A DNA stretch of 64,000 bases from a bacterium (GCA_036004665.1 DASYRG010000008.1:82754-146753); one strand, 5' to 3'. Shown: positions 11,273 through 53,004, numbered from the stretch's first letter. Notes: generated by a model from the sequence alone, not told the origin. A program made the numbers and translations.

Positions 11273-11394
11273 AATCAATGATGGCCCCGGCTGGGAGCGC
11301 CGAAGCTCCAACGGCTTCTCGGCTGCGGGCGTCGCTGTATCATCGCCCTCGCCGCCCCATGCGCGGATCCGGCGGGGGATCGGAGGAGCACCCA

Positions 11395-11664
11395 ATGAGT
11401 CTGCAGCGGGGGGAAAAGCAGTCGATCCTGACGGCCTACCGCCGTCATGAGGGCGACACGGGATCTCCGGAGGTCCAGATCGCCCTGCTCACCGAACGGA
11501 TCAACCAGCTCACTGAGCATCTGCGCGCGCACAAACGGGACTTTCACTCCCGCCGTGGCCTGCTGAAGATGGTGGGCCGGCGCCGCCGGCTCCTCACCTA
11601 TCTCATGAAGTCGGAGGTGGACCGCTACCGTCAGGTGGTGCAGCGGTTGGGGCTGCGCGGATGA
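11395..11664 (+). CDS. rpsO: 30S ribosomal protein S15
   Basis: 89 aa; [43 protein letters not shown]; GGAGGAG RBS 7 nt upstream; the ORF-track start at 11014 lies inside ribF. Confidence 0.95.
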
Positions 11665-11696
11665 ACGGCTGGTGGCATAGCATCGAGCACCGAGGA

Positions 11697-11786
11697 GATG
11701 GAGCGGGGGACTCCCCGCTCCGCTTGCTGTAGGCCCATGAGGCCCGGACCGGGGCCGAAGGTAAGCGGCCGGCGCAAGCCGGCCGC
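11697..11786 (+). promoter_or_regulatory. structured rpsO-pnp intercistronic leader: a 9-10 bp GC hairpin (GGAGCGGGG-GACU-CCCCGCUCC) and a 9-bp hairpin with a GCAA tetraloop; candidate RNase III / PNPase autoregulation site
   Basis: Strong hairpins seen directly; E. coli pnp is autoregulated through an RNase III-cleaved leader hairpin. Confidence 0.5.
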
Positions 11787-11817
11787 GACGTGAGCCAGTA
11801 ACCATCAGGAGGATGGC

Positions 11818-14226
11818 ATGATCGTTTCGACACAACGTCAGGTAGAGATTCAAGTCGGGGGGCGGACGCTCTCCTTCGAGACCGGGCTGCTGGCCCGCCA
11901 GGCCGACGGCGCCGTCGTGGTGCGGTACGGCGACAGCCTGGTCCTGGTGACGGCCACGGGCGCCGCCGAACCCCGCGCCGGCATCGACTTCTTCCCGCTG
12001 ACCTGTGACTACGAAGAGAAGATGTACGCCGCAGGGAAGATCCCCGGCGGGTTCTTCAAGCGGGAGGGCCGGCCTGGAGAAGGCGCCATCCTCACCGCGC
12101 GCCTGATGGACCGCCCGATCCGTCCGCTCTTCCCCAAAGGGATGCGCCACGACGTTCAGGTGATCGCCACCGTGCTCTCCACGGACCAGGAGAACGATCC
12201 CGCCATCCTGGCCGTCAACGGCGCTTCTGCGGCGCTGATGCTCTCCGGACTGCCGTTTGAGGGGCCGGTCGGCGCGGTGCGCGTGGGCCTCATCGACGGC
12301 ACGCTGGTGATCAACCCGACCATGCGGCAAATCGAGGAGCAGAGCTGGCTGGATCTAGTCGTGGCGGGGACGGCCGGAGCGATCATCATGATCGAGGCGG
12401 GGGCGAAAGAGGTCCCTGAGGAGCAGATGGTGGCGGCCCTCGACCTCGCCCAGACCGAGATCCGGCGGATCGTGGAGATTCAGAACAGGTTGGCTGAACT
12501 GGCGGCCAAACCCCGGCGGGAGATCCCCCTGGCCCTTCCCGATCCCGCGCTTGCCGCCGTCGTACGCGAGGCGGCCCTCCCGCAGATCGTCGAGGTCTAC
12601 AGGCACTCTGAGAAGATGGCGCGCGAGGAAGCGTTGCGAGACATCCAGCGCACGGTCGCGCAGACCCTGATGGAGCGTGATTCGGACCGCTACGGGGGCG
12701 CTGGCGCTGCCGTGGCGGACGTCGTCGATGCGCTGGCCAAGGAGGAGATGCGGCGCCGGGTCCTCGGGGAGGGGCGGCGCGCCGATGGGCGGGGCACGAC
12801 GGAGATCCGGCCCCTTACCATCCAGGTCGGGCTGCTCCCGCGGGCGCACGGCTCGGGACTGTTCCAGCGCGGGCAGACCCAGGTGCTCACCGTGACCACC
12901 CTCGGCACCGGCGAGGACGAGCAGAAGCTGGACAACCTGGGTCTGGCCGAACGCAAGCGGTACATGCATCACTACTCCTTTCCGCCTTTCAGCGTCGGAG
13001 AGGTCCGGCCGCTGCGGGGGGCGGGGCGCCGCGAGATCGGACACGGGGCGCTGGCGGAGCGGGCGCTGGCGTGGGCGATTCCCTCCGCGGAGGCCTTCCC
13101 GTACACCATCCGTCTGGTCTCGGAAGTGCTGGAGTCGAACGGCTCCACCTCGATGGCCGCCGTCTGCGGCTCGACGCTCGCCCTCATGGACGCGGGCGTG
13201 CCCATCCGAGCGGCGGTCGCCGGCATCTCCGTGGGGCTGATCACCGACGATGCGGGCCGGGCCGCCCTCCTCACCGACATCCTGGGGATGGAGGACGAGA
13301 TGGGCGACATGGACTTCAAGGTCGCCGGCACGCGGGACGGGATCACGGCGATTCAACTGGACCTGAAGATCAAGGGGCTGAACCGGGAGCTGCTGCTGGG
13401 CGCCCTAGCCCAGGCGCGGGATGCCCGCCTGACCATCCTGGACCGGATGACCGAGGTCCTGCCCGGGCCGCGGACAACGCTCTCCCCCTACGCGCCGCGC
13501 ATCCTGACGATGGAGATCAACCCCGAGCGCATCCGCGAGGTGATCGGTCCCGGCGGCAAGGTGATCAACAAGATCACGCAGGAGACCGGCGCCAAGATCG
13601 ACATTGAGCAGGACGGCCGGATCGCCATCGCCTCGGTGGACGAGGCGGCGGCGCGGCGGGCGATGGCGATGATCGAAGAGATCGTCCGCGAGGTGAAGGT
13701 GGGCGAGCTGTACCTGGGACGCGTCACGCGGCTGATGAACTTCGGCGCCTTCGTCGAGGTGCTTCCCGGCAAGGAAGGACTCGTGCACATCTCCGATCTC
13801 TCCGATGACCGGGTGGAGAAGGTCGAAGACGTGGTCAAGGTGGGAGACGAACTGCTGGTCAAGGTCAAGGAGATCGACAATCTCGGCCGCGTCAACCTGA
13901 CGCGGCGGGGGATCGGGGCCGACGAAGAGAGCGCGATCCCCCAGGGCATGACCGCCCCGCCGCTGCGTCCCCAGCGCGACGATCGGGGGCGAGGAGGAGG
14001 ACGGGGCGGACCGGGCCGACCGGGGCGGGGACGCAGCGGAGGAGGCCGCGGTCCCGACGGTGGCCGGGGCGGGCGTCCCCAGGGCCCGCGCAGCCAAGGG
14101 CGAGGTGAACACCGCGGCGCCGGCGCCCGCGGGGGGTCGGAAAGGCCGCGCGGGGGCGGTTCAGAGAGTGGGGGATCTGGAGGGGCTTCGGGAGAGGGCG
14201 GAGGCGGAACCGGCCCTGCACGCTGA
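11818..14226 (+). CDS. pnp: polynucleotide phosphorylase with a ~90-aa Arg/Gly-rich (RGG-type) C-terminal tail
   Basis: 802 aa; RNase PH, KH and S1 domains (GELYLGRVTRLMNFGAFVEV); low-complexity tail after the S1 domain. Confidence 0.95.
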   Translation: MIVSTQRQVEIQVGGRTLSFETGLLARQADGAVVVRYGDSLVLVTATGAAEPRAGIDFFPLTCDYEEKMYAAGKIPGGFFKREGRPGEGAILTARLMDRPIRPLFPKGMRHDVQVIATVLSTDQENDPAILAVNGASAALMLSGLPFEGPVGAVRVGLIDGTLVINPTMRQIEEQSWLDLVVAGTAGAIIMIEAGAKEVPEEQMVAALDLAQTEIRRIVEIQNRLAELAAKPRREIPLALPDPALAAVVREAALPQIVEVYRHSEKMAREEALRDIQRTVAQTLMERDSDRYGGAGAAVADVVDALAKEEMRRRVLGEGRRADGRGTTEIRPLTIQVGLLPRAHGSGLFQRGQTQVLTVTTLGTGEDEQKLDNLGLAERKRYMHHYSFPPFSVGEVRPLRGAGRREIGHGALAERALAWAIPSAEAFPYTIRLVSEVLESNGSTSMAAVCGSTLALMDAGVPIRAAVAGISVGLITDDAGRAALLTDILGMEDEMGDMDFKVAGTRDGITAIQLDLKIKGLNRELLLGALAQARDARLTILDRMTEVLPGPRTTLSPYAPRILTMEINPERIREVIGPGGKVINKITQETGAKIDIEQDGRIAIASVDEAAARRAMAMIEEIVREVKVGELYLGRVTRLMNFGAFVEVLPGKEGLVHISDLSDDRVEKVEDVVKVGDELLVKVKEIDNLGRVNLTRRGIGADEESAIPQGMTAPPLRPQRDDRGRGGGRGGPGRPGRGRSGGGRGPDGGRGGRPQGPRSQGRGEHRGAGARGGSERPRGGGSESGGSGGASGEGGGGTGPAR

Positions 14227-34365: not shown

Positions 34366-34617
34366 ATGGTCGTCTGGATCGAGGAGCAGGCCTTTCTCAG
34401 CGCGGCGGAGGTCTGCGCTGCACTGGGAGTGAAGCCGCAAACGCTGTATGCGTACGTCAGCCGGGGGGTGCTGCACAGCTACCGTCAGGGCAAGCGCCGC
34501 GAACGGCTGTATCTGCTCCGCGAGATCGAGGCGCTGATGCGACTCCGGCCGGCCCGCGAGCGCGGACCGCGCCGGGTGGACCTCCCCCGCGCCGACGACT
34601 GGGTCGGGGAAGTCTAA
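34366..34617 (+). CDS. small HTH protein (MerR/excisionase-AlpA-like DNA-binding domain)
   Basis: 83 aa; LSAAEVCAALGVKPQTLYAYVSRGVL helix-turn-helix; ATG overlaps the citrate-synthase-like stop. Confidence 0.55.
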   Translation: MVVWIEEQAFLSAAEVCAALGVKPQTLYAYVSRGVLHSYRQGKRRERLYLLREIEALMRLRPARERGPRRVDLPRADDWVGEV

Positions 34618-37600
34618 CTCCCGCGAAGCGGAGCAGGCTCCTCTTCCTCGATCGGAGGAAGATCATCTTCCTTGCGGAGGATTGCTCCCCTGGGGCTGGC
34701 CAGGGCGATCGCGCGCAGGTCTTCCGGCAGCGAGTCGAAGACGCGACGCAGGAGCCCGCGCAGGGTCTCGCGGTCATCTGGGCGATGGAACCACTCCCAC
34801 AGCCGCTCATACCCCCCGAGCTGCAGCGTCACGTTTTGAATCGACTCCGCCTGGGCGATGCCCGCCCTGAGTCTCACCTCCGCCTCCCCGGGCCGCCCAT
34901 CGTGGTAGGCGAGGAGGGCCTCCAGAAGGGCCAGGCTGGCCAGGTGATGCGCCGCGCCCCAGCGCTCCACGCCCGGCCGCCGATCGCGCACGAAGGCGCG
35001 CAGGTCGTCGATGCGTCCGGCCTCGTAGAGCGCCTCCCCGACCGGTCCGATGACCTCGCCGTCGTCGGGGATGAAGATGTTCCAGGGCAGCGCCAGGATC
35101 CGGTCGATCGCGCGGTTCACTTCGGCCTGATCCCCATCCAGCCTGGCGGCGAGCACGCTGGAGAGCAGCCATATCTGCTGCCACCCGGGGTTGGCCGGCG
35201 CGTCGAGCGCCAGCGCCTCGGCCAGCAGGGCGCGGGTGCGTCCCACGTCGCCGATTTCGTAGATCACCTGGGCGAGGTACATCAGAGCAAAGGGCAGATG
35301 GATCTTGGCGGTCTCCCGCAGCTCCCTGACCATCTCTTCCAGGCGGCGGAGGGCTTCGCCCCAGCGGCCCAGCCCGAGGAGGACGGGAGCGATGAAGGAG
35401 ACGGTGAAGCCCATGCGCCGGCGATCGCCGATCGATTCGGCCAGCGCGAATGCCTCCTCGCCATAGCGCAGCGCCTCCGGATAGCGTCCCCAGTAGGCGT
35501 GGATGACGGAGAGGTAGCTGATGCTGGTGGCCTCCTTGGACTTGTCGCCGGCCCGGCGTGCGGCGGCGAGCGCCTCCTGAACCGCGGCCAAGGCCTCCTC
35601 GCCGTTCGCTGCGGCGAAGTGCCCCATCGCCATCAGGTTCAGGCCGCGGGCGACACCGGAAAGATCCCCGGCCTGGCGCAGGAAGGCGATGCCCTCCGGC
35701 AGCCGCGGGTCATGGAGGACGATCTCTCCCCGGTCCCACCCGACGTTCGCCAGGTCGAGCAGAGAGAGGCCGAGCGTGCGCCGGTCTTCCGTCTCGCGCG
35801 CCAGGATCGCCGCCCGGGAGAAATGCTCCTCTGCCTCGTCGAGCCGCAACTCACGGTGGTGGATAAAGCCCACACGCTGCTCCATCTGTGCTTCCAGCCT
35901 GCGGTCGCCTGCCGCCCGCGCCAGCGTCAGGGCCTGGGAAAAGTCCGTGAGGGCGTCGGGATAACTGCCGCGAAGTTGATGGACCTCGCCGCGGTCGCGG
36001 GCCAGAGTCGCGAGCTCACCCGGAGGGAGGCCCGCCCGGCTCGCCGCCTCGAGGGCCTGATCGAAGAGGCGGAGCGCGTCCTCATTGGCATAGAGTCGGC
36101 GCGCCTTGTTGGCCGCGCGGTGGAGGTAACCGGCCGCGCGCGCATCGTCCCCGGCCGCGCGTGCGTGCTCGCCGAGGATGTCGATCACATCCTCGGTGCG
36201 TTCGCCGAGTGTCCCCTCCAGCCAGCGGAGGGCCTCGGCGTGCGCTCGCTGGCGCTGGGTCTTCGGCAGCAGCCCGTAGGCGACGTCGCGGGTGAGGATG
36301 TGTCGGAAGGCGTACTCCGGTTCGCCGATGGCCGAGCGGGGCCGAGCAACCACGAGCTCCTTGCTGATCAGGGCGTCGATGGCCGGCTGCACTGCGTTCT
36401 CCTCGAGACCGGCGAGGGCACGCACGGCGGAGGGCCAGAAGGCCCGCCCCAGCACCGAGGCGGCCTGCAGCGCTCGGCGTTCATCGGGGGGGAGCCTGTC
36501 GATGCGGGCGGTCAGCACGGCCTGGACGTTGTCAGGAATCGCGCCGCCCGGTCCGCCCCCTTCCATCAGCATCCGCACGAGCTCCTCGACGAAGAGGGGG
36601 TTCCCCTCGGCGCGCTGGGCCACAGCCTGACGCATTTCGGCGGCGAGGCCCTTGCTGCTGAGGGCGGCCACGAGGGCCTCTGCCTCCTCGGGGCGGAGCG
36701 GTTTCAGTTCAAAGGAAATGGCGTTTCGCCCGCCGCCGCCCCAGTTGCGCCGCCGCTCCAGCAGCTCCGGCCGGGTGAGACACATGACGAACACCGGCGC
36801 CTCGGCGATGCGTTCCACCATGGCCGAGATGAGGTCGAGGACCCCATCGTCCGCCAAGTGCAGGTCCTCCAACGCGAGAATCACCGGCCGGGCGGCGGCG
36901 AGTCCCACCAGCACCCCCTGCCACGCGTCGAAGAGCGCGCGGCGCAGCTGCTCCGGGTCGGCGGCGGCCTCGGGACCGCCATCGGCGGCGCCGAAGGTGA
37001 GGAGCAATCCCTCTAGTAGGGCCTCGCCCCCCTCGCCGAGCGCCGCGGTCAACCATTCGCGCATCTTCGACCGTACGATTTCGGGGCGATCAGTATCCAT
37101 CAGCCCGGCCTGTATCCGCAGGATCTCCAGCAGGGCGTGGTAGCCGATCTGCCCGCCGAAGGCCACGCCGCGGCCCCGCAGCACCAGGGGCGGCGGATCA
37201 TCGTCGCGCACTTCGGCCAGGAATTCCCGCAGGAGGCGGGATTTGCCGACGCCCGCCTGCCCGAACACTGTCACCATCTGCACCAGGCGGTCCTCCCGGC
37301 TGCGCTGGTAGAGATGGCGGAGCAGGCCAAGTTCGCCGTGGCGACCGACCAGAGGAGCGGCGATCCGGTGGTCCTCGGGCGACTCCGGGAGAGGCGCCAG
37401 GGCGGTCCAGACCATCAGAGGGGCGGACTTCCCCTTGACCGTGAGCGGAGGCAGCGGCCGGTAATCGATCGCCTCCTTCGTCGCCCGGTAGGTGCGCTCC
37501 CCCACCACCACGCTCCCGGCGGGCACGTTCTGCATGATGCGCGCGCCGCTCGTCACGGCGTCGGCCACGAGGAAGTCCCGGTCGAAGGTCGACCCCGATG

Positions 37601-38150
37601 CCGCCACGACCTCTCCGGTGTTGATACCGACCCGCACGGCCAGCCGCACTCCCACCGTGGCGGCGAGATGCTCGTTGAGGACGGGGAGGGCGTCGCGGAC
37701 GGCCAGCCCGGCGCGCACCGCGCGCTCGGGATCGTCCTCGTGCGTGACGGGGAGGCCAAAGACGGAGAGCACCTCGTCCCCGATGAGATTGGCCACCGTC
37801 CCGCCGAAGCGTTCCACGGCATGTTGCACGACGGTGTAGAACTGCCCGACGACCATTCGGGCGTCTTCCGGATCGAGCTGTTCCGTCAGCGGTGTGGAGT
37901 CGGCCAGATCGACGAAGAGGACGGTGACCACCTTGCGCGCCTCCGCCGTGAGCACCGGCCCGGCGGCTGGAGGATGGGCGTGAGCCGCGAGGGGGATGCC
38001 GCAGTTGGCGCAGAAGCGCGCGCCCTCGGCGACCGGGGTGCCGCATTCGGGGCAGAGCTCCTGCTGGGGTTTGCCGCAGTTGGCGCAGAAGCGGGCGGTG
38101 GGCGAGTTGGGCTGACCGCAGTTCCAGCAGGGCCGGGTGTCGGTGATCAT
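34614..38150 (-). CDS. multidomain signalling protein: N-terminal double zinc ribbon, class III adenylate/guanylate cyclase domain, STAND/AAA ATPase and a long TPR-like C-terminal region (start taken at MITDTRPCWNCG)
   Basis: CWNCG...CANCG...CPECG...CANCG ribbons; cyclase VTVLFVDLADSTPL...NTGEV; Walker A GQAGVGKS; the ORF-track ORF extends to 38450, but the ATG at 38150 lies directly before the zinc ribbon. Confidence 0.8.
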   Translation of the reverse strand: MITDTRPCWNCGQPNSPTARFCANCGKPQQELCPECGTPVAEGARFCANCGIPLAAHAHPPAAGPVLTAEARKVVTVLFVDLADSTPLTEQLDPEDARMVVGQFYTVVQHAVERFGGTVANLIGDEVLSVFGLPVTHEDDPERAVRAGLAVRDALPVLNEHLAATVGVRLAVRVGINTGEVVAASGSTFDRDFLVADAVTSGARIMQNVPAGSVVVGERTYRATKEAIDYRPLPPLTVKGKSAPLMVWTALAPLPESPEDHRIAAPLVGRHGELGLLRHLYQRSREDRLVQMVTVFGQAGVGKSRLLREFLAEVRDDDPPPLVLRGRGVAFGGQIGYHALLEILRIQAGLMDTDRPEIVRSKMREWLTAALGEGGEALLEGLLLTFGAADGGPEAAADPEQLRRALFDAWQGVLVGLAAARPVILALEDLHLADDGVLDLISAMVERIAEAPVFVMCLTRPELLERRRNWGGGGRNAISFELKPLRPEEAEALVAALSSKGLAAEMRQAVAQRAEGNPLFVEELVRMLMEGGGPGGAIPDNVQAVLTARIDRLPPDERRALQAASVLGRAFWPSAVRALAGLEENAVQPAIDALISKELVVARPRSAIGEPEYAFRHILTRDVAYGLLPKTQRQRAHAEALRWLEGTLGERTEDVIDILGEHARAAGDDARAAGYLHRAANKARRLYANEDALRLFDQALEAASRAGLPPGELATLARDRGEVHQLRGSYPDALTDFSQALTLARAAGDRRLEAQMEQRVGFIHHRELRLDEAEEHFSRAAILARETEDRRTLGLSLLDLANVGWDRGEIVLHDPRLPEGIAFLRQAGDLSGVARGLNLMAMGHFAAANGEEALAAVQEALAAARRAGDKSKEATSISYLSVIHAYWGRYPEALRYGEEAFALAESIGDRRRMGFTVSFIAPVLLGLGRWGEALRRLEEMVRELRETAKIHLPFALMYLAQVIYEIGDVGRTRALLAEALALDAPANPGWQQIWLLSSVLAARLDGDQAEVNRAIDRILALPWNIFIPDDGEVIGPVGEALYEAGRIDDLRAFVRDRRPGVERWGAAHHLASLALLEALLAYHDGRPGEAEVRLRAGIAQAESIQNVTLQLGGYERLWEWFHRPDDRETLRGLLRRVFDSLPEDLRAIALASPRGAILRKEDDLPPIEEEEPAPLRGS

Positions 38151-38223
38151 GGCTGTAATCCGTTCATGGCAGGGGATTCCCAACCGCGGGAGGGAACCCT
38201 CCGGCGTCAAGGAGGAATCCCGG

Positions 38224-39162
38224 CTGAAGACATTATCGGTCATCGCCGCCGGCGGCGCCAACGTCGACGTCAAGGTCCGCACGGCGTCGCCGCCCACCGA
38301 GGGCCGCTCAACGCCGGGGGAGGTCCATCTCGCCCCGGGGGGAGCGGCGCGGAACGTCGCAGAAGCGCTCGCGCGGATGGGGGCGGAGGTGGCGCTCCAC
38401 ACCGCCGTGGGCGCGGACGCCTTTGGCGACTGGCTGATCGCCGTGACCACCGCTGCCGGCGTCGACTGCGCCGCGGTTTTTCGCGGTCCTGGTCAGACAG
38501 GGATCTACGTCACCGTCAACGGCGCCGGCGTCGCCGACGCGTCACTCGTCGAATCGCTGGACCCCGCGTGGCCCGCGTGGCCCGGGACGGAGGGGGTCGT
38601 GCGCGTACTCGATGCCAATCTCTCCGCCTCCGTGATCGCGCGGCTGGCCGCCCCGGCGTCGGCCTCGCGGCTCGTCCTCATTGGTACCTCGCCGGCCAAA
38701 GTCGCGCGCCTACGACCGCTGCTGCGGGACGCATGGCTGCTCTGTCTGACCGCCGCGGAAGCAGCAGCGCTCCTGGGCGCGGGAGCGCATGCTGGTGGAG
38801 AACCGCTCGCCCGCGCGGTGGCGGCGTTGGGACCGGCGCAGGTCCTTCTCACGGAGGGCGCTCGGGGACTGGGTCTGCTGGCCGACCCTCATCCCAGCGC
38901 AGCGCGGGGAAGATGGTGGACGCACCCGGCCCGCCCAGCTGTGGCCCTCGTCGATCCCACTGGCGCGGGAGATGTCGCGGCGGCCGCGCTCACCTTCGGG
39001 CTCGCCGCAGATCTGGCGCCCGAGCGCATTCTCGCCGCGGCCGCGGAGGCGGCGGCGATGACCGTCGGGACCTGGGGGAATGTGCCCCCAGAAGTGGGAA
39101 CTGTATGGAAAGGGATCAGTGAGGGTCCCACAGGTTCGCGCAGTGAACCTGTGGGGAGTTGA
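38224..39162 (+). CDS. PfkB-family carbohydrate/nucleoside kinase (probable pseudouridine kinase); the start is uncertain (AAGGAGGA RBS 8 nt before a CTG; upstream in-frame ATG at 38149)
   Basis: LSVIAAGGANVDV N-terminal motif, C-terminal GAGD motif (DPTGAGDVAAAA); co-operonic with psuG. Confidence 0.7.
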   Translation: MKTLSVIAAGGANVDVKVRTASPPTEGRSTPGEVHLAPGGAARNVAEALARMGAEVALHTAVGADAFGDWLIAVTTAAGVDCAAVFRGPGQTGIYVTVNGAGVADASLVESLDPAWPAWPGTEGVVRVLDANLSASVIARLAAPASASRLVLIGTSPAKVARLRPLLRDAWLLCLTAAEAAALLGAGAHAGGEPLARAVAALGPAQVLLTEGARGLGLLADPHPSAARGRWWTHPARPAVALVDPTGAGDVAAAALTFGLAADLAPERILAAAAEAAAMTVGTWGNVPPEVGTVWKGISEGPTGSRSEPVGS

Positions 39163-42929: not shown

Positions 42930-42958
42930 TTGACATGCGAACATTTGTTTGGTACGGT
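42930..42958 (+). promoter_or_regulatory. recA promoter (-35 TTGACA, 17-nt spacer, -10 TACGGT) with an embedded Cheo-type LexA box CGAACATTTGTTTG (42938-42951)
   Basis: Matches the Gram-positive SOS box consensus CGAACRNRYGTTYC except at one position; overlaps the spacer in the classic way. Confidence 0.75.
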
Positions 42959-43013: not shown

Positions 43014-44099
<1,086 letters not shown>

Positions 44100-44100: not shown

Positions 44101-44793
44101 ATGCAGATCGGACGGATCCGGCCGGCGGGACGAGGCGGCCACCTGCGCGCGGTGACGCTCGCTGATGGCCGCCGCTTCCTGGTGGACGCCGAACGCGCTC
44201 TTCCCCTTGCGCTCACGGAAGGGATGGAGATCGAAGCGGATCTGCAAGCGCGACTCGCCGCCCTGGCCGAAGAGACCCGCGCCCGGGAGACCGCCTTGGC
44301 GCTCCTCCGCTACCGGCCGCGCAGCCGCACCGAGCTGGAAGGTCGGCTCCGGCGCCGCGGCGTCGCCCCAGGTCCCGTCGACGTCGTGCTCGCGGAACTG
44401 ACGTCCTCCGGTGCCATCGACGATCGCCGTTTCGCCAGGCTCTGGATCGAGAGCCGTCTCGCCGGGGGCAGGAGCGGGCCGCACCGGTTGCGCGCCGAAC
44501 TCCGTCTCAAGGGCATCGATCCCGCGATCGTTGACGAGACGCTGCGTGCGGCGCTGCCGCCGGAGCAAGAGGCGCAGCTCGCGGCGGCGGCTGCCGACCG
44601 CTACCTGGCGCGCCGGCAGTCGCTCCCCGTCGAGGTCCGGCTGCGCCGGCTCGTGGGTCTGCTCAGGCGCCGCGGCTTCTCCACCGGCGTCATCGCCCCG
44701 ATTCTCAGAGAGAGCGCACGGCAGGTGCGGGGCCGGCGCAACGCAGGATCGCTTCGGCGCCGGGCGCAGCACGAGGTTCTGGACACTCCGTGA
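44101..44793 (+). CDS. recX: RecA regulator RecX
   Basis: 230 aa; helical repeat architecture; ATG 2 nt after the recA stop. Confidence 0.8.
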   Translation: MQIGRIRPAGRGGHLRAVTLADGRRFLVDAERALPLALTEGMEIEADLQARLAALAEETRARETALALLRYRPRSRTELEGRLRRRGVAPGPVDVVLAELTSSGAIDDRRFARLWIESRLAGGRSGPHRLRAELRLKGIDPAIVDETLRAALPPEQEAQLAAAAADRYLARRQSLPVEVRLRRLVGLLRRRGFSTGVIAPILRESARQVRGRRNAGSLRRRAQHEVLDTP

Positions 44794-47700
44794 GTGCGCT
44801 CCCGTTGCGGCGACATCCCGACCGGCCCGACGGCGGCCAGCTCATCCTGGAATTCGCCGCCAGAGAGACGCTGCAGGATCAGTCCGCCGACCGGACGATC
44901 GACCGGGGGGTGGATCGGCCCACCGAGCGTCTCACGGATCGGGCGCTGGAAGGACTGAACGAAGAACAGCTCCGCGCGGTGACCTTCGGGGAGGGACCGC
45001 TGCTCATCGTCGCCGGAGCCGGCACGGGGAAGACCTCCGTGATCACCCGGCGCATCGCCTGGTTGATCGCCGCCCGGCAGGCGCGCCCCTCCGAGATCCT
45101 CGCCCTCACCTTCACCGACAAGGCCGCGGCCGAGATGGAGGAACGCGTCGACGTGCTCACGCCCTATGGCTATACGGACATCACCGTCGGGACCTTCCAC
45201 GCATTCGGCGACCGGGTCCTGCGGCAGCACGCGCTTGAGCTGGGCCTGCCCCCCGACGTGCGTGTCCTCTCGCGCGCCGAGCAGGTGCTCTTCCTCCGGG
45301 AACGCCTCTTCGAACTCCCGCTGCACTACTACCGCCCCCTCGGTGACCCCACCCGCTATGTCGAGGCGCTCATCGCGCTGTTCAGCCGGGCTAAGGACGA
45401 GGACGCGGGGCCCCAGGACTACCTGGCCTTCGCCGAGCGCGTGGCCGTCGCTGCGGCCCAATCCCCAGAGGACGCGGAACTCGCCGACGCCGCGCGGAAG
45501 CAGGCCGAGCTGGCGCAGGCCTACCGCCTCTACCAAAGCCTGCTGGGACGCGAAGGGCTCCTCGATTTCGGCGATCAGATCACCCTGCCGCTCCGGCTCT
45601 TTCGGGAGCGCCCGGGCGCGTTGCGAGCCTATCAGGAGCGGTTCCGCTACATCCTCGTCGACGAGTTCCAGGACACCAACTACGCGCAGTTTCAGCTGGT
45701 GCAGCTGCTCGCCGGTCCCCACCACAACGTCACCGTCGTCGGCGACGACGACCAGGCGATCTTCAAGTTTCGAGGAGCGTCGATCAGCAACATCCTTGGG
45801 TTCACCGCGACGTACCCCGAGGCGACGCAGATCGTGTTGACGCGCAACTACCGTTCACCGCAGCCGGTGCTCGACGCCGCGTACCGGTTGATCCAGCACA
45901 ACAACCCGGACCGGTTGGAGCTGCGCAACCAGATCGACAAACGGCTCATCGCGACCCCTGGCGGCCCGGACGTCCAGCACCTACACTTCGACACGCTCAG
46001 CGGCGAGGCCGACGGGGTGGCGGCGCACATCGCCGAGCGGGTCTCTTCGGGGGCGTACCGCTACAAGGACTTCGCCATCCTGGTACGCAGCAACAACGAC
46101 GCCGATCCGTTCCTGCGCGCATTGAACATGCGCGGCGTCCCCCACCGCTTCACCGGCAGCCGCGGCCTCTACAACCGGGAAGAGATCCGTCTCGTCCTGG
46201 CGTTCTTGCGGGCCCTCGCCAACCCCGGGGACAACCTCAGCCTCTACTACCTGGGCATCTCGCCGCTGTATCTGATCAGCCCGACCGACCTTGCGAAGGC
46301 GCTGGCCTACGCCAACCGGCGCAACCGCACCCTCGAGTACGTCTTCCGCCGGCTGGAGGCCTTCGCCGACCTGGCCGAGGAGATTGGCCCGGAGACGCGG
46401 GCGGCTCTGGCCCGTCTGCTCGACGACCTCGAGGAGATGCGTCGCCTGATGAAGGATCACCCCACGGGCCGGGTCCTCTATACTTACCTCGTCACCCGGA
46501 CGGGGTTCGTGGGGCGGCTGGCGACCTCCGAGAACCCCGTCGACGAGATGGCCGTGCGCAATCTGGCGCGGTTCTTTGACCTCGTCGCCCGGTACGGGGA
46601 GATCGCCGCCTACGACCGCGTCCCCGAGTTCGTCAAGCACCTCGACGATCTCATCGGCGCCGGCGACGACCCCGCCGTGGCTGAGGCCGATCCGGACACC
46701 GATGCCGTCGCCGTCCTCACCGTGCACAAAGCCAAGGGGTTGGAGTTTCCGGTCGTCTTCTTGGTCTCGGCCGTGGCGGACCGCTTTCCGACGCGCAACC
46801 GCGGCGAGCCGATCCCGCTCCCCGATCCGCTGGTGAAGGACGTGCTGCCGCAGGGAGACTTCCACCTGCAGGAGGAGCGCCGCCTCTTCTACGTGGCGAT
46901 GACGCGGGCGATGAGAGAACTGTACCTGACCACCGCCCGGGACTATGGGGGAGTCCGTGCCCGCAAGGTGAGCCGCTTCGTGCTGGAGGCCCTCGATCGT
47001 CCGGCGCCCGAGGTCGTCGCCTTTCGCGCCGCCCCCACCGAGACGATCCAGCGCCATGCCCCGCCGGCGGAGGGCCAGCAGTTTCTCGCCGGGATGATCC
47101 CGCCGGAGGAACCACTGAGCCTCTCGTTCCGTCAGGTGGACGACTACGCCACCTGTCCGCTGAAGTTCAAGTACACGCACATCCTCCGCGTACCGCTGCT
47201 CCGCGACCACCGGGTCGTCTATGGCAGCGCGGTGCACGAGGCGGTGCGAGAGTACAACCGGCGCCGCGCCCGTGCTCAACCGGTCTCTGCCGCGGACCTG
47301 ATTCAGATCTTCGAGCGCGCCTGGATCAACGAGGGGTTCATCAGCCGCGAGCACGAGGACCAGCGGATGGAAGAAGGGCGGCAGGTCCTGCGCACCTTCT
47401 TCGAGTTCCAGGAGGGACAGGGGCGACGCCCCACCTTCGTCGAGGCGCCCTTCTCGTTCCACGTCGGTCTCACGCGGGTGAAAGGACGCTGGGACCGCGT
47501 CGACCTGCGGGGCTCTGGCGCCGTCGTCATCGACTTCAAGACGAGCGACGTGCGCACGCAGAAAGACGCCGACCGCCGCGCCCGGGAGTCCCGCCAGCTG
47601 GGCATCTACGCACTGGCGTATCGTGAGGTCTACGGGCGTCCGCCCGACCGGCTCGAACTGCACTTCCTCGGTCCCCAGCAGGTGCTGGTGGGGGAAACGG

Positions 47701-47882
47701 GGGCGGACGAGAAGATGCTGGCCGAGGCCGCCGAGGTGATCGACCACGCCTCCCGGGGCGTGCGGACGCAGAACTTCATCGCCACCCCCGACTACTACAC
47801 TGCCTGCCGCTACTGCGCCTTCAACTCCATCTGCCCCTACACGGCGACGGGCGATCCGGTGCTGCCGGAGGCGCCGGAATGA
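44790..47882 (+). CDS. single-chain UvrD/PcrA-type SF1 helicase fused to a C-terminal AddB/Cas4-like PD-(D/E)xK nuclease with a 4-Cys Fe-S cluster
   Basis: 1030 aa; AGAGTGKT, TFHAFG and later helicase motifs; C-terminal C...DFKT...CRYCAFNSIC; GTG start overlaps the recX stop. Confidence 0.85.
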   Translation: MSALPLRRHPDRPDGGQLILEFAARETLQDQSADRTIDRGVDRPTERLTDRALEGLNEEQLRAVTFGEGPLLIVAGAGTGKTSVITRRIAWLIAARQARPSEILALTFTDKAAAEMEERVDVLTPYGYTDITVGTFHAFGDRVLRQHALELGLPPDVRVLSRAEQVLFLRERLFELPLHYYRPLGDPTRYVEALIALFSRAKDEDAGPQDYLAFAERVAVAAAQSPEDAELADAARKQAELAQAYRLYQSLLGREGLLDFGDQITLPLRLFRERPGALRAYQERFRYILVDEFQDTNYAQFQLVQLLAGPHHNVTVVGDDDQAIFKFRGASISNILGFTATYPEATQIVLTRNYRSPQPVLDAAYRLIQHNNPDRLELRNQIDKRLIATPGGPDVQHLHFDTLSGEADGVAAHIAERVSSGAYRYKDFAILVRSNNDADPFLRALNMRGVPHRFTGSRGLYNREEIRLVLAFLRALANPGDNLSLYYLGISPLYLISPTDLAKALAYANRRNRTLEYVFRRLEAFADLAEEIGPETRAALARLLDDLEEMRRLMKDHPTGRVLYTYLVTRTGFVGRLATSENPVDEMAVRNLARFFDLVARYGEIAAYDRVPEFVKHLDDLIGAGDDPAVAEADPDTDAVAVLTVHKAKGLEFPVVFLVSAVADRFPTRNRGEPIPLPDPLVKDVLPQGDFHLQEERRLFYVAMTRAMRELYLTTARDYGGVRARKVSRFVLEALDRPAPEVVAFRAAPTETIQRHAPPAEGQQFLAGMIPPEEPLSLSFRQVDDYATCPLKFKYTHILRVPLLRDHRVVYGSAVHEAVREYNRRRARAQPVSAADLIQIFERAWINEGFISREHEDQRMEEGRQVLRTFFEFQEGQGRRPTFVEAPFSFHVGLTRVKGRWDRVDLRGSGAVVIDFKTSDVRTQKDADRRARESRQLGIYALAYREVYGRPPDRLELHFLGPQQVLVGETGADEKMLAEAAEVIDHASRGVRTQNFIATPDYYTACRYCAFNSICPYTATGDPVLPEAPE

Positions 47883-47929
47883 TGATGCTGCCGGGCCCCT
47901 TGAAATGAGGGGCAGTCGGATACCTTGAA

Positions 47930-49039
47930 ATGATCCGGCTCCTGCACACCGCCGACGTGCACCTGGGGATGGCCTTCCCCGCCCTGGGCGAACGCGGCCG
48001 CGACCACCGTGAGCAACTCAAGCGGACCTTCGCCCGCCTCGTGGAGCTGGCGCTGGCCGAGCGCGTCCACGTCCTCATGGTGGCCGGCGATCTGTTCCAC
48101 TCCCACCGGCAGTCTGAGGCCACCCTGGGTTTCGTACGCGAGCAGTTCCTCCGCCTCCATGACGGTGGAGTCCGGGTCGCGCTGCTGGCGGGCAATCACG
48201 ACCGGTTGGGTGAGGGGAGCGTCTGGGCGCGGGCGCGCCTCGAAGAGGCCTGTGACAACGTGACGTTGTTCGGCGCCGCTCCCCAGGTGAAGGTCTACCC
48301 CGATCTCGAACTGGCGGTCCTCGGGCAGTCGGTTGGCGCGGACGGACCGCAGTCCTTGCGGTCCTGGCCGCGGGAGCGTCCTGCCCGCTTTGCGGTCGGT
48401 TTGGCGCACGGCGGCGCCTACCGCGAGGGGGTTGTGGACGCGGGGACGATTCACCCCGCCGACGTGCGGGCCCTGGGGCTGGACTACCTCGCCCTCGGCG
48501 ACTGGCACAGCGCCCAGCAGGTGACCGGTCCGCCGACACCGGCCTGGTACGCGGGCGCGCCGGAGTTCCTGGCCATGGACCAGGAGGCGGGAGCTGCCCT
48601 CCTCGTGACGATTGCCGCGCCCGGACAGGCGGAGGTCAGCGCGGTGAAGGTCGGGCGGCGGCGGTACAGGCGCGTGGAGCTTGACGTCACCGGCACGGAT
48701 CCCGATCGAGTCCGCGCCCGCGTCGCCGCTGAAACGGAGGCCGACGTGGTCCTGGACGTCGTGCTGACCGGCACGGTGACGCCCGAGCAGACCCTCGACG
48801 CGCGGGAGCTCGAGGAGTCCCTGGCGGAGGGTTGCTTCCGCGCGCGCGTGCGGAATCAGGCGCGCCTCTGGCTCGATCAGGCGACGCTGGATGCCTTCCC
48901 GGAGCGGACACTGGTGGGCCGCTACATTCGCCTTCTGCGCGCGCAGGCGCAGGCCGCGCCGCAGGAGGAGCAAGAGATCATCGAGGAAGCCCTCCAGACC
49001 GGGGTGGGCCAGCTCCTGGCCGAGGCGGGCGGAGACTAA
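47930..49039 (+). CDS. Mre11/SbcD-family calcineurin-like phosphoesterase (short, SbcF/YhaO-like)
   Basis: 369 aa; MIRLLHTADVHLG and GDLFH motifs. Confidence 0.85.
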   Translation: MIRLLHTADVHLGMAFPALGERGRDHREQLKRTFARLVELALAERVHVLMVAGDLFHSHRQSEATLGFVREQFLRLHDGGVRVALLAGNHDRLGEGSVWARARLEEACDNVTLFGAAPQVKVYPDLELAVLGQSVGADGPQSLRSWPRERPARFAVGLAHGGAYREGVVDAGTIHPADVRALGLDYLALGDWHSAQQVTGPPTPAWYAGAPEFLAMDQEAGAALLVTIAAPGQAEVSAVKVGRRRYRRVELDVTGTDPDRVRARVAAETEADVVLDVVLTGTVTPEQTLDARELEESLAEGCFRARVRNQARLWLDQATLDAFPERTLVGRYIRLLRAQAQAAPQEEQEIIEEALQTGVGQLLAEAGGD

Positions 49040-51273
49040 TGCGGCTACTGGCCCTGCGCCTGCGTCACTTCCGCCGTTTCGAGGAGGCGGAGTACCGTTT
49101 TGATCCCGGCCTGAACCTGCTGATCGGGCCCAACGAGGCCGGCAAGTCCACGCTGCGCCAGGCCATCCTGGCGGCCTTCTTCGTCAACCCGGCCACGACC
49201 GCCAAGAAGATCGCGGAGTGGCGCCCCTGGGGGAGCGACCGGTTGGGCTCGATCGCCCTGGAGTTCGAGCTGGACGGCAGACGGTTCGAACTGCGCAAAG
49301 ACTTCGAGCACCGCGGGCTGGAGCTCCGCGACCTGCTCCACGGCGTCTCCTATGAACCGACGAAGGTGCAGGAGCGGTTGCAGGCGGCGCTGGGCTTATC
49401 GACCGAACCGCTCTATCGCTCCACGGCCATGATCGAGCAGACCGAACTGACGGTCCTTCGCGCCGGCGCCGCGGATATCGGTCAGCGCCTCTCCCGCATC
49501 ATCCAGGCTGGGCCCGGTGACGCCGAGGCCGGCGCGGTCATCAAGAGGTTCGACAAGGAGCTCGCTGACCTGGAGAAGGGCCTGGACGGCCGTCCCGTCA
49601 AGACGGCGGGCCTCATCCGCGGATTGCAGGAAGAGGTCGCGGCCTTGACGCGGGAACGGGACGCCTTGCGGCGCCGCGTCGAGGTCCTGGAGAGCCACCG
49701 GGAGGAGCTCAGGCGGATCCGCATCGAGGCCGACCAGGCGGCCACCGAGCTCGCCGACCGAGAGGCCCTGTTTCGAGAGAACGAGCGGCTGCTGCGCACG
49801 CAGCGTGAGCTGGAGCACCACCGCTGGGAGGCGCAGCAGCTGTCGGAGAAGGTCAGCGCGGTCGACGCCGGGTACGAACGGCTGGCGGCGATCGCCCGCG
49901 CGATGGAGGAGCTGCAGGCCAGCGGAGTACCCGACGACGCGGCTGTCGCCCGCATGCACGCGGCGGCCGGCCGGCTGCAGCAGCAGGAGAAGACCTCAGA
50001 CGAGCTGGCCCGGAAGGTGCGCGCAGCGGAGGAGGGGGTGCGAGCCCTTGCAGATTCACCAGGGAACGCCGGGGGGAGGAGCCGTGCGCCGGTGGCCGGG
50101 TGGCTCCTCGTCGCCCTGGCCGTCCTCGTCGCCGCTGCCGCATTTGGATGGTCACTCCTCTTCCTCTGGCCGGTCGCGGTCGCGGCCGGCGCCGTGGGAG
50201 TCCTCGTCATCGTTCGCGCGGCGCGACAGCGATGGCATGCTGACGAGGCTGCCCGCGCGCGTGACGGCGCGCTCCTGCGGCTGGAGGGCGCCGGGCAGGA
50301 CCTCCTCGCGGCGGGGGAGGAACTGACGGCGGCGCGGACGATTCTCCATCGGAGCGTGATCGCGGCCGGGAGTGGAACGATGGAGGACGCGCTGGAGCGT
50401 CACTCGCGGATGCGGCAGCTGGAGACCGAGCGCACGGCCGCGGAGAACCAGGTGGCAGCTCACCTAGGAGGACGGGAGGTCGAGGAGGTGCGCGAGGCGC
50501 GTGACCGGAAACGCGCGGACGTGGCGGGACACGAGATTCAGCTCCGCGACGGGGAGGCGAAGCGCCTCACCGGTTTGGAGGTCACCCAGCTCGAGCGGAC
50601 GGTCAGAGAACTGACGCAGCGGGTGCACACCCTGGCGGGGCGCCGGGAGTACCTGGAACGGGAGACCGCTCAGGGCGCCCCCGACGACGAGGCGCTGGCC
50701 GCCGTGGAAGAGCGGCTGGCCGAACGGCAAGAGGGGTTGGAAATCGCTCGCCGGCGGGACCGCGTCCTCCGCCTGGCGGTGGAGGGGCTGCGCGAAGCCC
50801 GGCAGCAGACGCTCATCCCGGCCCGCCAGCGGGTAGAGGAGCGCGCCGGGGAGTACCTGACCCTGCTCACCGGGCGCGCGTACGACCGGGTCCGCATCAC
50901 AGAGCCGCCCCTGAAGGTGGAAGTCTGGGCGGAGGGGGCCGGTCAATGGGTGGAGCCGTCGGAACCGCTCCTCAGCCGGGGCACAGCCGACCAAGTGTAC
51001 CTGGCCGTTCGCCTGGCGCTGGTGGAAGTGCTCTCGGAGGGACGGCACCCCCCGCTGCTGTTGGATGATCCATTCGGCTCTTTCGACCCCGAGCGGTTGT
51101 CCGCGGCGATGGCCCTCCTGCGGCGCGTCAGCGAGAGCTACCAGGTACTGCTCTTCACCTGCCGGCCGGAGTACGAGCCCTTCGCGGACCGCGTCATCCC
51201 CATCGATGCGGCAGCGCCGCCCGCCCCGGAACTCCCCGGCCCGCTCTGGCAGCCGCCTCCCCAGACGCACTGA
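49039..51273 (+). CDS. SbcC/Rad50-like AAA ATPase with coiled-coil region and internal hydrophobic (putative TM) segments (SbcE/YhaN-like)
   Basis: 744 aa; N-terminal LLIGPNEAGKST Walker A, C-terminal LLLDDPFGSFD D-loop; hydrophobic stretch WLLVALAVLVAAAAFGWSLLFLWPVAVAAGAVGVLVIV; ATG overlaps the previous stop. Confidence 0.8.
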   Translation: MRLLALRLRHFRRFEEAEYRFDPGLNLLIGPNEAGKSTLRQAILAAFFVNPATTAKKIAEWRPWGSDRLGSIALEFELDGRRFELRKDFEHRGLELRDLLHGVSYEPTKVQERLQAALGLSTEPLYRSTAMIEQTELTVLRAGAADIGQRLSRIIQAGPGDAEAGAVIKRFDKELADLEKGLDGRPVKTAGLIRGLQEEVAALTRERDALRRRVEVLESHREELRRIRIEADQAATELADREALFRENERLLRTQRELEHHRWEAQQLSEKVSAVDAGYERLAAIARAMEELQASGVPDDAAVARMHAAAGRLQQQEKTSDELARKVRAAEEGVRALADSPGNAGGRSRAPVAGWLLVALAVLVAAAAFGWSLLFLWPVAVAAGAVGVLVIVRAARQRWHADEAARARDGALLRLEGAGQDLLAAGEELTAARTILHRSVIAAGSGTMEDALERHSRMRQLETERTAAENQVAAHLGGREVEEVREARDRKRADVAGHEIQLRDGEAKRLTGLEVTQLERTVRELTQRVHTLAGRREYLERETAQGAPDDEALAAVEERLAERQEGLEIARRRDRVLRLAVEGLREARQQTLIPARQRVEERAGEYLTLLTGRAYDRVRITEPPLKVEVWAEGAGQWVEPSEPLLSRGTADQVYLAVRLALVEVLSEGRHPPLLLDDPFGSFDPERLSAAMALLRRVSESYQVLLFTCRPEYEPFADRVIPIDAAAPPAPELPGPLWQPPPQTH

Positions 51274-51288: not shown

Positions 51289-51318
51289 TTGACCTGTTTT
51301 GGACCTCTCCCTTACAAT
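51289..51318 (+). promoter_or_regulatory. rny promoter: -35 TTGACC, 17-18-nt spacer, -10 TTACAAT
   Basis: Near-consensus hexamers read directly 16 nt after the sbcC-like stop; a GC hairpin (CGCCCCC/GGGGGCG) follows in the leader. Confidence 0.55.
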
Positions 51319-51486: not shown

Positions 51487-53004
51487 TTGCTCATCGGGGT
51501 GGGGGCGGTCGCGTTCCTCCTTGGATTCTTCCTGCGCAAGAGCGTCGCCGAGGCGCGGATTCAGTCCGCCGAAGTCGCCGCCCGCAAGATCGTCGAAGAG
51601 GCGGCGCGAGAGGCCGAAGCACAAAAACGGGAGGCCGTCGTTGAAGCCAAGGACGAGGCCTTCCGTCTGAAACGAGAGGCTGAGCATGAGATTCGCGAGC
51701 AGCGGGCCGAGATCCAGCGCCTCGAGCGGCGTTTGGTACAGCGTGAAGAGAATCTTGAGCGACGGGGAGAGGTCCAGGAGAAGCGCGAACGGCTGATCGC
51801 GCACAAGGAACAGGAACTGAGCGAGGCGCGCGAACAGGCCGAAGCCCTCAGGGAACAACAGCGGACCGAACTGCAACGCATTTCCGGCCTCACCGCCGAG
51901 GAGGCGCGGGAGCACCTCCTACGCCAGGTCGGGGACGAGGCACGCGGTGACTCCACCGCGCTGATCAAGAAGATCGAATCGGAGGCGCGGGAGGACGGCG
52001 ATCGCCGGGCCCGGGAGATCATCGCCCTGGCCGTCCAGCGCGTGGCCGCCGACCACACCGCCGAAGTCACCGTCTCGGTCGTCCCCCTGCCCAACGAAGA
52101 GATGAAGGGGCGGGTGATCGGCCGGGAGGGGCGCAACATCCGCACGCTGGAGTCCCTCACCGGGGTCGATCTGATCATCGACGACACCCCAGAAGCGGTG
52201 ACCCTCTCCTCCTTCGATCCGGTGCGGCGGGAGATCGCCAGGCTGGCGCTGGAGAAACTGATCGCCGATGGGCGCATCCACCCCGCCCGCATCGAGGAGA
52301 TGGTGGAGAAGTCTCAGCGGGAGCTGGAACAGCGCATCAAGGAGGAGGGGGAGGGGGCCGCCTTCGAGGCCGGCGTGCATGGCCTGCATCCGGAGGAGAT
52401 CAAGATCCTGGGGCGCCTGAAGTTCCGCCACTCCTACGGTCAGAACCTGCTGCAACACTCGGTCGAGGTGGCGTTGCTGGCCGGTCTGCTCGCCACCTAC
52501 CTGGAAGCCGATCCGGCTCTGGCGCGGCGCGCCGGCATCCTGCACGACATCGGCAAGGCCCTCACCCACGAGGTAGACGGCACCCACTCCGCCATCGGGG
52601 TCGATCTCTGCCGCCGCTACCACGAGCCGCCGGAGGTGATCAACGCGATCGAGTACCACCACGGGGACGCCGAGGCCACCTGCGTGGAGGCGATCCTGGT
52701 CGCGGCGGCGGATGCAATCTCAGCCAGCCGTCCCGGCGCGCGCAAAGAGACCCTGGAGATGTTCATCAAGCGCAATCAAAGCCTGGAGCAGCTGGCGACC
52801 TCCTTCCCGGGCGTGGAGAAGGCATTCGCCATCCAGGCGGGACGGGAGGTCCGCGTCATCGTCAAACCGACCGAAGTGGACGACCTCTCCGCCCAGGCCC
52901 TTGCCCGCGACCTGGCTAAGAAGATCGAGGCCGACCTGGAGTACCCGGGACAGATCAAAGTCACGGTCCTGCGGGAGACGCGGGCCATCGAGTACGCCCG
53001 TTGA
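51487..53004 (+). CDS. rny: ribonuclease Y (N-terminal TM, KH and HD domains); the true start is probably about 7 codons upstream, but there is no canonical start codon there
   Basis: Near-colinear with B. subtilis RNase Y ([11 protein letters not shown]..., HD motif LLHDIGKA, ...AVEYAR C-terminus). Confidence 0.9.

Follow-up and report, generated by a model that had tools for sequence, protein, structure and literature searches.

A probable LexA-controlled recA operon encoding a single-chain helicase-nuclease and a YhaO/YhaN-like pair in a candidate bacterial phylum

The 64,000-nucleotide stretch of bacterial DNA analysed here (GCA_036004665.1 DASYRG010000008.1:82754-146753; referred to as the window, with positions counted from its first letter) belongs to an uncultured lineage of the candidate phylum CSP1-3/Sysuimicrobiota. 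Between its recA-recX and rny genes stand three further genes, which encode a helicase fused to a nuclease, an Mre11-like phosphoesterase and a Rad50-type ATPase, respectively, and are together called the cassette. The question raised by this locus is whether the three genes serve with recA in the repair of double-strand breaks (DSBs), or are co-regulated neighbours with separate jobs, act on incoming DNA, or take part in defence. On balance, recA, recX and the three genes probably constitute one LexA-controlled, DNA-damage-inducible operon for recombinational DSB repair. The new element is the operon architecture, in which recA and recX are followed by a UvrD/Fe-S (iron-sulphur) nuclease gene and a YhaO/YhaN-like pair under a conserved LexA box; the protein families of which the operon is built were already described, its logic mirrors that of addBA-sbcDC and current views are not overturned by it. 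The features of the operon are as follows (aa, amino acids; nt, nucleotides; ORF, open reading frame).

42930-42935, + strand: -35 element (TTGACA) of the recA promoter, from sequence
42938-42951, + strand: Cheo-type LexA box CGAACATTTGTTTG, an exact match to CGAAC-N4-GTTYG between the -35 and -10 elements of recA
43023-44099, + strand: recA, with the ATG at 43023 (MNERQR) picked as start by comparison with relatives
44101-44793, + strand: recX, with RecX_HTH1/2/3 Pfam matches
44790-47882, + strand: ORF 1, single-chain helicase-nuclease of 1030 aa with a GTG start
47883-47929, + strand: intergenic gap of 47 nt between the helicase-nuclease gene and the Mre11-like gene
47930-49039, + strand: ORF 2, Mre11/SbcD/YhaO-like phosphoesterase of 369 aa
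49039-51273, + strand: ORF 3, YhaN/SbcE-like Rad50-type ATPase of 744 aa (the ATG at 49039 was used; in the mechanical ORF list this ORF begins further upstream, at a TTG)
51289-51318, + strand: sigma-70-like promoter, TTGACC-18 nt-TACAAT
51487-53004, + strand: rny ORF

LexA box, gene junctions and conservation of the locus

All of the 13 relatives with sequence upstream of recA carry a CGAAC-N4-GTTTG box at this place, flanked by the -35 and -10 elements, while the surrounding sequence diverges. Such conservation amounts to a strong phylogenetic footprint, which points to control of the recA promoter by LexA. The window has only one other exact Cheo match, CGAACTGGTGTTTG at 11146-11159, which is situated within the ribF ORF and most likely arose by chance. 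By consensus scan, neither a promoter-like site between the recA promoter and 51273 nor a terminator-like site in intergenic position from recA to 51273 was detected, and the cassette is therefore likely to be co-transcribed with recA-recX. The first good promoter is the sigma-70-like one at 51289-51318, which precedes the rny start by about 170 nt and was taken to mark where the cassette ends; rny probably has a transcript of its own. Among the listed members of the LexA/SOS regulon of Bacillus is yhaONM (PMC3896406). The original prediction, made from the window alone, had placed the cassette probably in the LexA regulon, which is plausible in view of the box in all these relatives and the lack of an intervening promoter or intergenic terminator-like site in the scan.

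Loci are designated by L-numbers, and context was counted in 80 of them, including 19 of the source lineage and 60 of other phyla, which were retained from at least 591 confirmed helicase-nuclease loci obtained in a species scan (nuclease-domain profile against one genome per GTDB species); a locus with at least 3 kb downstream of the helicase-nuclease gene was regarded as informative. Relatives retain the gene order cinA-thpR-recA-recX-helicase/nuclease-Mre11-like-YhaN-like-rny-ymdB-PHP-selA-selB even where their ATPase is no more than 38% identical to that of the window. The recA identity of relatives is 78-95%. The genes recA, recX and helicase-nuclease are contiguous in 18 of the 19 lineage loci, the remaining one (L013) having only about 300 nt upstream, and this order was also seen in L001-L006. 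The Mre11/YhaN-like pair follows the helicase-nuclease gene in 12 of the 14 informative lineage loci; in the other two, RmuC (PF02646) stands in its place before rny (L011, about 10900-12056; L014, 10904-12088). In the comparison that the prediction had proposed between core and variable presence, the cassette is syntenic and core in this lineage.

In the window, the cassette is preceded by cinA, a LigT/ThpR-like gene, recA and recX, and is followed by rny, ymdB, a PHP-domain gene, selA and selB, with infB, ribF, pnp and ftsK further upstream, so that it is embedded in a core housekeeping backbone from infB to selB. Horizontal acquisition of the cassette was considered and rejected because its G+C content (0.66-0.73) is the same as that of its flanks (window about 70%) and its synteny is conserved. 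Two variations were noticed among the relatives. A LAGLIDADG intein splits the recA gene of L001 (957-3113) and of L005 (3047-5191), with products of 714-718 aa and split tblastn matches, and the recA of the window is free of an intein. In L019 and L020 (ANGP1-type relatives), about 3.6 kb of extra DNA lies between the YhaN-like gene and rny.

The claim that every stop codon in the cassette overlaps the next start held for two junctions and failed for one. The recX stop codon and the GTG of the helicase-nuclease gene share GTGA (44790-44793), and the TAA of the Mre11-like gene and the ATG of the ATPase gene overlap by one base in TAATG (49037-49041); the recA stop codon (44097-44099) is separated from the recX ATG at 44101 by one base, with the same spacing in L003. 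By contrast, the helicase-nuclease stop codon (47880-47882) is followed by 47 nt before the ATG of the Mre11-like gene at 47930, and an earlier start of that gene giving an overlap was excluded by an in-frame TGA (47906-47908). Neither this gap nor its length is conserved, the two genes overlapping in L005 and being 11 nt apart in L003. The junction between the helicase-nuclease gene and the pair is the one loose joint of the operon, accepting insertions. In L001 (6893-8889; L002 alike), which are the closest long relatives, a type II restriction-modification (R-M) pair is inserted there, its members being an N6_N4 methyltransferase and an ORF of 303 aa that matches REase_II weakly, and in L012 (10782-11582), as in L013 and L021, an ORF of about 230-260 aa for a HAD-like hydrolase is found in the same place.

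The single-chain helicase-nuclease and its family

The nuclease region of the helicase-nuclease gene has the parts listed below.

47118-47837, + strand: nuclease domain, defined by Pfam, invariant columns and motifs
47154-47156, + strand: codon of C789
47484-47504, + strand: nuclease catalytic motif GRWDRVD
47529-47543, + strand: nuclease catalytic motif IDFKT
47595-47612, + strand: nuclease catalytic motif QLGIYA
47805-47834, + strand: stretch with the codons of C1006, C1009 and C1015

Pfam matches of the 1030-aa protein were obtained for UvrD-helicase (aa 56-342), UvrD_C (348-717) and PDDEXK_1 (777-1016), which correspond to a PcrA/UvrD-type superfamily 1A (SF1A) motor at aa 56-733 and a C-terminal PD-(D/E)xK nuclease at aa 777-1016. 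All the SF1 motifs (AGAGTGKT, DEFQD, GDDDQAIFKFRGA, TVHKAKGLEF and YVAMTRA) are intact, as are the three nuclease motifs, and the four cysteines of the nuclease are invariant across 17 homologues. The nearest PDB sequences of the motor were PcrA (7e-92) and UvrD, with which the fold search concurred, and the nearest solved relatives of the nuclease domain, by PDB sequence matches, were the nuclease domains of AdnB and AdnA. The curated NCBIfam models for AddA, AddB, RecB and PcrA all scored far under their cut-offs (addA_Gpos, 205.5 against 707.65; recB, 144 against 696; addB, 23 against 904), and the protein is accordingly none of those; a Foldseek search with its predicted model only confirmed PcrA/UvrD, AddA, AdnA/B and RecB as relatives. 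Both descriptions given in the original prediction, a 1030-aa UvrD-like SF1 helicase with a C-terminal AddB/Cas4-type four-cysteine nuclease and a single polypeptide combining an active helicase with the Fe-S nuclease, agree with these domains, motifs, PDB matches and invariant cysteines; an active-looking PcrA/UvrD motor and an Fe-S nuclease of the AdnA/AddB type are joined in one chain.

The protein shares with AddAB, RecBCD and AdnAB an SF1 motor and a RecB-type nuclease with intact catalytic motifs, and with AddB the Fe-S nuclease pattern C...CxxCxxxxxC. It differs in that those enzymes have two or three subunits encoded together, whereas a single gene with no conserved partner is present here. 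The Bacillus addB-addA-sbcD-sbcC operon is likewise an end-resection helicase-nuclease beside an Mre11/Rad50-type pair; AddAB, however, has two subunits of about 1160-1230 aa and is accompanied by an SbcDC pair, whereas one chain and a YhaO/YhaN-type pair are found in the window. In mycobacterial AdnAB, each subunit consists, as here, of a UvrD-like SF1 module and a C-terminal RecB-type nuclease, and has about 1045-1095 aa. The Fe-S cluster of AdnAB is in the nuclease of AdnA, which receives and processes the 5' strand at the fork, and AdnB is the motor (PMC8789073). The four-cysteine Fe-S nuclease of the window is of the AdnA type, and its motor resembles PcrA/UvrD more closely than AdnB. AdnAB is a heterodimer that divides motor (AdnB) and Fe-S 5'-strand nuclease (AdnA) between two chains, whereas here both are in one gene.

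A single-chain helicase/Fe-S nuclease had been considered unusual in the original prediction, and this view was not borne out: a large family of this kind exists and was noted in 2017 (PMC5704561). The confirmed loci belong to Gemmatimonadota, KSB1, Nitrospirota, Nitrospinota, Aerophobetes, Clostridia, Rokubacteria/Methylomirabilota, Zixibacteria, Planctomycetia, Omnitrophota, Dormibacterota and others. A UvrD motor lies in frame directly upstream of the nuclease in 79 of the 80 kept loci, with the exception of L071, where the match begins at a contig end. The full fusion was present in 48 of the 60 loci of other phyla, the remaining 12 ORFs being shorter and nearly all cut by contig ends; the length of complete ORFs ranges from 955 to 1079 aa in other phyla and reaches 1145 aa in the lineage, and identities to the window in other phyla are 48-61% for the motor and 42-55% for the nuclease. 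A profile search of 1.84 billion cluster representatives (clusters at 50% identity) gave 971 proteins at E <= 1e-30, in which, where the match was full-length, the nuclease domain is C-terminal and the protein has roughly 915-1060 aa, a few being longer. Relatives on PLSDB plasmids had less than 30% identity only, R-M-linked examples from Priestia having about 22% in the nuclease domain, which suggests that the present branch is a group of chromosomal orthologues. By sequence, the helicase-nuclease belongs to a large chromosomal family with a single-chain UvrD-type motor and a four-cysteine nuclease, which occurs in many phyla.

No second AdnA/AddB-like subunit was found among the clustered ORFs within 5 kb in the 60 loci of other phyla, where the recurrent neighbours are lineage-specific metabolic genes and RmuC. 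Downstream on the same strand, RmuC was found in seven loci of other phyla (L029, L030, L037, L039, L041, L043 and L045), and no report of an association between the helicase-nuclease and RmuC was found in the literature. RmuC has a reported link to recombination at inverted repeats. It is a single protein unrelated to the pair and has no ATPase; the RmuC that takes the place of the pair in L014 begins with a hydrophobic stretch and matches coiled-coil-type families, so that it looks like a membrane-associated coiled-coil protein, as does the ATPase of the pair.

In the survey of Hudaiberdiev et al. (2017, PMC5704561), UvrD-Cas4-like fusions are the largest pfam12705 branch, widespread, monophyletic and often stand-alone, and some of them adjoin type III R-M or Dcm/Vsr genes. 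They resemble the protein of the window in having an SF1 helicase and a C-terminal Cas4-like PF12705 nuclease with four cysteines. In contrast to the fusions linked to R-M or Dcm/Vsr genes, the group here is chromosomal, highly conserved and tied to recA-recX, YhaO/YhaN-like genes or RmuC. No biochemical or experimental characterisation of the UvrD/Cas4-like helicase-nuclease family was found in the literature.

The Mre11-like and YhaN-like pair

The 369-aa protein gave a Pfam match to Metallophos and is a calcineurin-like phosphoesterase with the Mre11/SbcD motifs DVH, GDLF, GNHD and GDWH, as had been predicted. SbcD/Mre11 was matched in PDB at 6e-8, and the SbcD/Mre11 models of NCBIfam were sub-threshold (SbcD TIGR00619, 56.7 against 77.65). 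The 744-aa protein matched AAA_23, AAA_27 and SMC_N in Pfam and Rad50 heads in PDB. It has a Rad50/SMC-type ABC ATPase head, divided between its two termini, with Walker A GPNEAGKST, signature SRGTADQ and Walker B LLLDD. The AAA_27 (YhaN) match reached 40.1 bits against a cut-off of 22 and covers residues 1-59 only; PF13514 is found in close homologues, which JGI labels 'uncharacterized protein YhaN', and the Rad50 models of NCBIfam scored at most 83 against cut-offs of at least 700. A CxxC zinc hook is absent from the 744-aa protein, in which the only cysteine is at 708. The feature in the middle of the coiled coil is the following.

50080-50229, + strand: hydrophobic helical hairpin (aa 348-397), defined by hydropathy and model

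This segment has a Kyte-Doolittle 19-residue maximum of 2.52 and is flanked by arginines on both sides. In the AlphaFold2 model of the protein (mean predicted local distance difference test, pLDDT, 83), for which Rad50 was the best structural match, an antiparallel coiled coil is predicted with a helix-turn-helix at its apex (helices 350-370 and 374-442 with a 3-residue turn). The prediction of an SbcC/Rad50-like ATPase of this length with a hydrophobic stretch in mid-coil was thus correct, and its suggestion that the hairpin is unusual was not: the hairpin is typical of the family and was described for SbcE in 2009 (PMC2811018). A two-helix hydrophobic segment occurs in most AAA_27 homologues of 617-1298 aa at a relative position of 0.44-0.54, including Paenibacillus YhaN and proteins from Parvibacter, a myxobacterium and an Acetobacteraceae metagenome-assembled genome. 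In the Gemmatimonadota locus L051 (12096-14765), the YhaN-like protein of 889 aa has no central hydrophobic segment at the threshold used, so that the hairpin is not universal in the YhaN family; that of L073 has one at aa 416-451.

A comparison by hhalign was made with a YhaN group that includes Paenibacillus 'YhaN AAA domain-containing' proteins of 1130-1168 aa, and not B. subtilis YhaN itself; it gave a probability of 100% with E 2.9e-71 over 712 columns, the hairpin included. With 744 aa against 1130-1168 aa, the coiled coil is shorter here than in these Paenibacillus YhaN-type proteins; B. subtilis YhaN has 963 aa. As far as sequence comparison goes, the pair is a short member of the already known YhaN/SbcE family. 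Its likeness to SbcCD and Mre11-Rad50 consists in the phosphoesterase motifs, the ABC ATPase head and the antiparallel coiled coil, whereas it is set apart from SbcCD proper by the absence of the zinc hook, the much shorter coiled coil and SbcD, SbcC and Rad50 equivalog scores under their cut-offs. The earlier assignment of the pair to the YhaO/YhaN (SbcF/SbcE) type and not to SbcCD proper agrees with these results.

The central domain of B. subtilis SbcE (YhaN), which is hydrophobic, insoluble and conserved, is described as unique; CxxC is absent, and the gene of the SbcD-like YhaO (SbcF) adjoins that of SbcE (2009, PMC2811018); beyond this paper, nothing was found in the literature on COG4717/AAA_27/PF13514 or SbcE as a transmembrane protein. 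SbcE and SbcF have a role in DSB repair and in transformation and gather in foci at the poles of competent cells, and transformation is reduced in sbcE mutants (PMC2811018). The window resembles this system in the Mre11-like gene directly upstream of the Rad50-like gene, in the hydrophobic centre without CxxC and in the link to SOS. It differs in that no yhaM exoribonuclease gene follows the pair, unlike in Bacillus yhaONM, that the pair lies inside the putative recA-recX operon behind the helicase-nuclease gene, and that the host is of another kind, since Lpt lipopolysaccharide-transport genes in this lineage point to an outer membrane.

Proposed function and competing explanations

In the proposed mechanism, LexA would leave the box upon DNA damage, and transcription from the recA promoter would run through recX into the cassette. 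The 1030-aa enzyme would bind a DNA end, its PcrA/UvrD-type motor tracking 3' to 5' on one strand by analogy, and the Fe-S nuclease would cut the displaced 5' strand, which at the fork is the strand processed by the AdnA and AddB nucleases. The cutting of this strand is proposed because the Fe-S nuclease resembles the AdnA/AddB nucleases (PMC8789073 for AdnA); it would leave the 3' tail needed by RecA, and one chain would do the job of the two-subunit AdnAB or AddAB. The Mre11-like nuclease and the Rad50-like ATPase would form a YhaO/YhaN-type complex that opens blocked, hairpin or protein-capped ends, and the hydrophobic hairpin, replacing the zinc hook, may anchor this complex in the inner membrane or zip its two arms together. 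That DNA repair is the most likely role, as the original prediction had put it, is an interpretation supported by the LexA box shared with recA, by the synteny and by the repair-family domains.

A broader proposal, offered tentatively and as rather doubtful, is that the single-chain enzyme is the main DSB end-resection enzyme of the phylum and possibly of the many others in which it occurs, as a fourth type beside RecBCD, AddAB and AdnAB, and that it is encoded in an SOS recA operon with a membrane-tethered end-cleaning complex. If so, one polypeptide would do what RecBCD, AddAB and AdnAB do with two or three. The context of the helicase-nuclease family previously suggested a defence role. Of the contextual evidence found, the fixed place of the gene behind recA-recX under a conserved LexA box speaks most clearly for a role of at least this branch in recombinational repair, to which the recurrent pairing with YhaO/YhaN-like genes or RmuC likewise points. 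The putative one-chain resection enzyme and the 744-aa Rad50-like protein, with a hydrophobic hairpin for a zinc hook, are compact candidates for biochemistry.

Several points weigh against the repair operon. Two terminator-like sites, at 46555 and 46738, lie within the helicase-nuclease ORF, although these are fewer than shuffled sequences give, and the 47-nt gap might conceal a signal that the scan does not recognise. For the 1030-aa protein, the AlphaFold2 model (predicted template modelling score 0.47; low confidence at 646-693 and 737-765) is no reliable guide to the domain arrangement or to the placement of the nuclease relative to the motor. Insertion of the hairpin into the membrane is a prediction, its helices being Ala/Gly-rich with a pLDDT of 61-69. 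For UvrD-Cas4-like fusions, an ancillary role in defence or repair was proposed, with defence stressed (PMC5704561). Finally, of the 44 informative loci of other phyla, 42 lack an Mre11/YhaN-like gene beside the helicase-nuclease, so that a functional link between it and the pair is not obligatory.

The last point leads to the first of the two rival explanations that are still realistic, namely mere co-regulation and action on DNA entering at the membrane. According to the former, which is regarded as unlikely though the strongest of the alternatives, the genes are neighbours with separate jobs: the helicase-nuclease is a general UvrD-like accessory, for instance in RecA-filament control, fork clearance or gap processing, the pair handles hairpins and secondary structures as SbcCD does, and their adjacency reflects shared SOS regulation. 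The stand-alone occurrence of the helicase-nuclease just given speaks for it, as do distant YhaO/YhaN-like pairs without a helicase-nuclease, which adjoin dnaE, adjoin dnaB or have an unrelated context (L007-L009), the RmuC genes in the place of the pair in L011 and L014, and the insertions taken by the joint between helicase-nuclease and pair (R-M pair in L001, HAD-like ORF in L012). On the other side, the helicase-nuclease and Mre11-like genes overlap in L005, and operons that combine a helicase-nuclease with an Mre11/Rad50-type pair are a known theme, as in Bacillus addB-addA-sbcD-sbcC and archaeal mre11-rad50-herA-nurA. Moreover, in 2 of the 44 loci (L051 of Gemmatimonadota, and L073), an Mre11-like and AAA_27 pair directly follows the helicase-nuclease gene in a housekeeping context (GGDEF response regulator, LptF/G, queA and ispD), so that a divergent pair has the same position in a second phylum. 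Identity to the window is only 24-32% for this pair, against about 60% for the motor and 47-49% for the nuclease of the helicase-nuclease; the far lower similarity of the pair suggests a separate juxtaposition with the helicase-nuclease.

It is improbable, to a greater degree, that the module processes incoming linear DNA at the membrane for RecA-dependent integration in natural transformation and not chromosomal breaks. The hydrophobic hairpin, as modelled, would put the complex at the inner membrane, the polar position of SbcE/SbcF in competent B. subtilis cells and the reduced transformation of sbcE mutants (PMC2811018) fit such a role, and recA is linked and cinA, a competence-induced gene, is close by. 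However, the cassette contains no competence genes, its promoter has a LexA box and not a competence box, and Bacillus SbcE also acts in DSB repair, so that chromosomal repair and DNA entry are not exclusive alternatives.

A defence role, in which foreign linear phage or plasmid DNA is degraded by the helicase-nuclease and the SMC-like ATPase, had been kept open in the original prediction because the parts list is like that of several defence systems. A PADLOC search with the three proteins, of the type that it had recommended, returned generic partial matches to GajB, LmuB, mad3 and PtuA with no system matched: the GajB matches reflect the UvrD core, those of the ATPase cover the P-loop only except for mad3 (C-terminal head, aa 531-720), the Mre11-like protein gave 0 matches, and neither GajA, LmuA/C or PtuB nor the gene set of any system was present. 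Although UvrD-Cas4-like fusions are tied to type III R-M and Dcm/Vsr loci (PMC5704561) and the operon of L001/L002 contains an R-M pair, a defence role is unlikely, indeed the least probable explanation of all, with the fixed place of the cassette in the core backbone across relatives with ATPase identity down to 38%, the helicase-nuclease identity of 50-60% across phyla that fits an orthologous housekeeping gene, the distance of all plasmid relatives (below 30%), the native G+C content and the SOS box shared with recA; the possibility left by the prediction is weakened by this synteny, the PADLOC result and the plasmid identities.

Apart from the recA operon, one further locus was noticed in the window. 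At 34614-38450 on the - strand, where long overlapping + strand ORFs gave no Pfam matches and are probably spurious, a 1278-aa protein is encoded which combines double zinc ribbons, an adenylate/guanylate cyclase domain, an AAA_16 (STAND-type) ATPase and TPR repeats.

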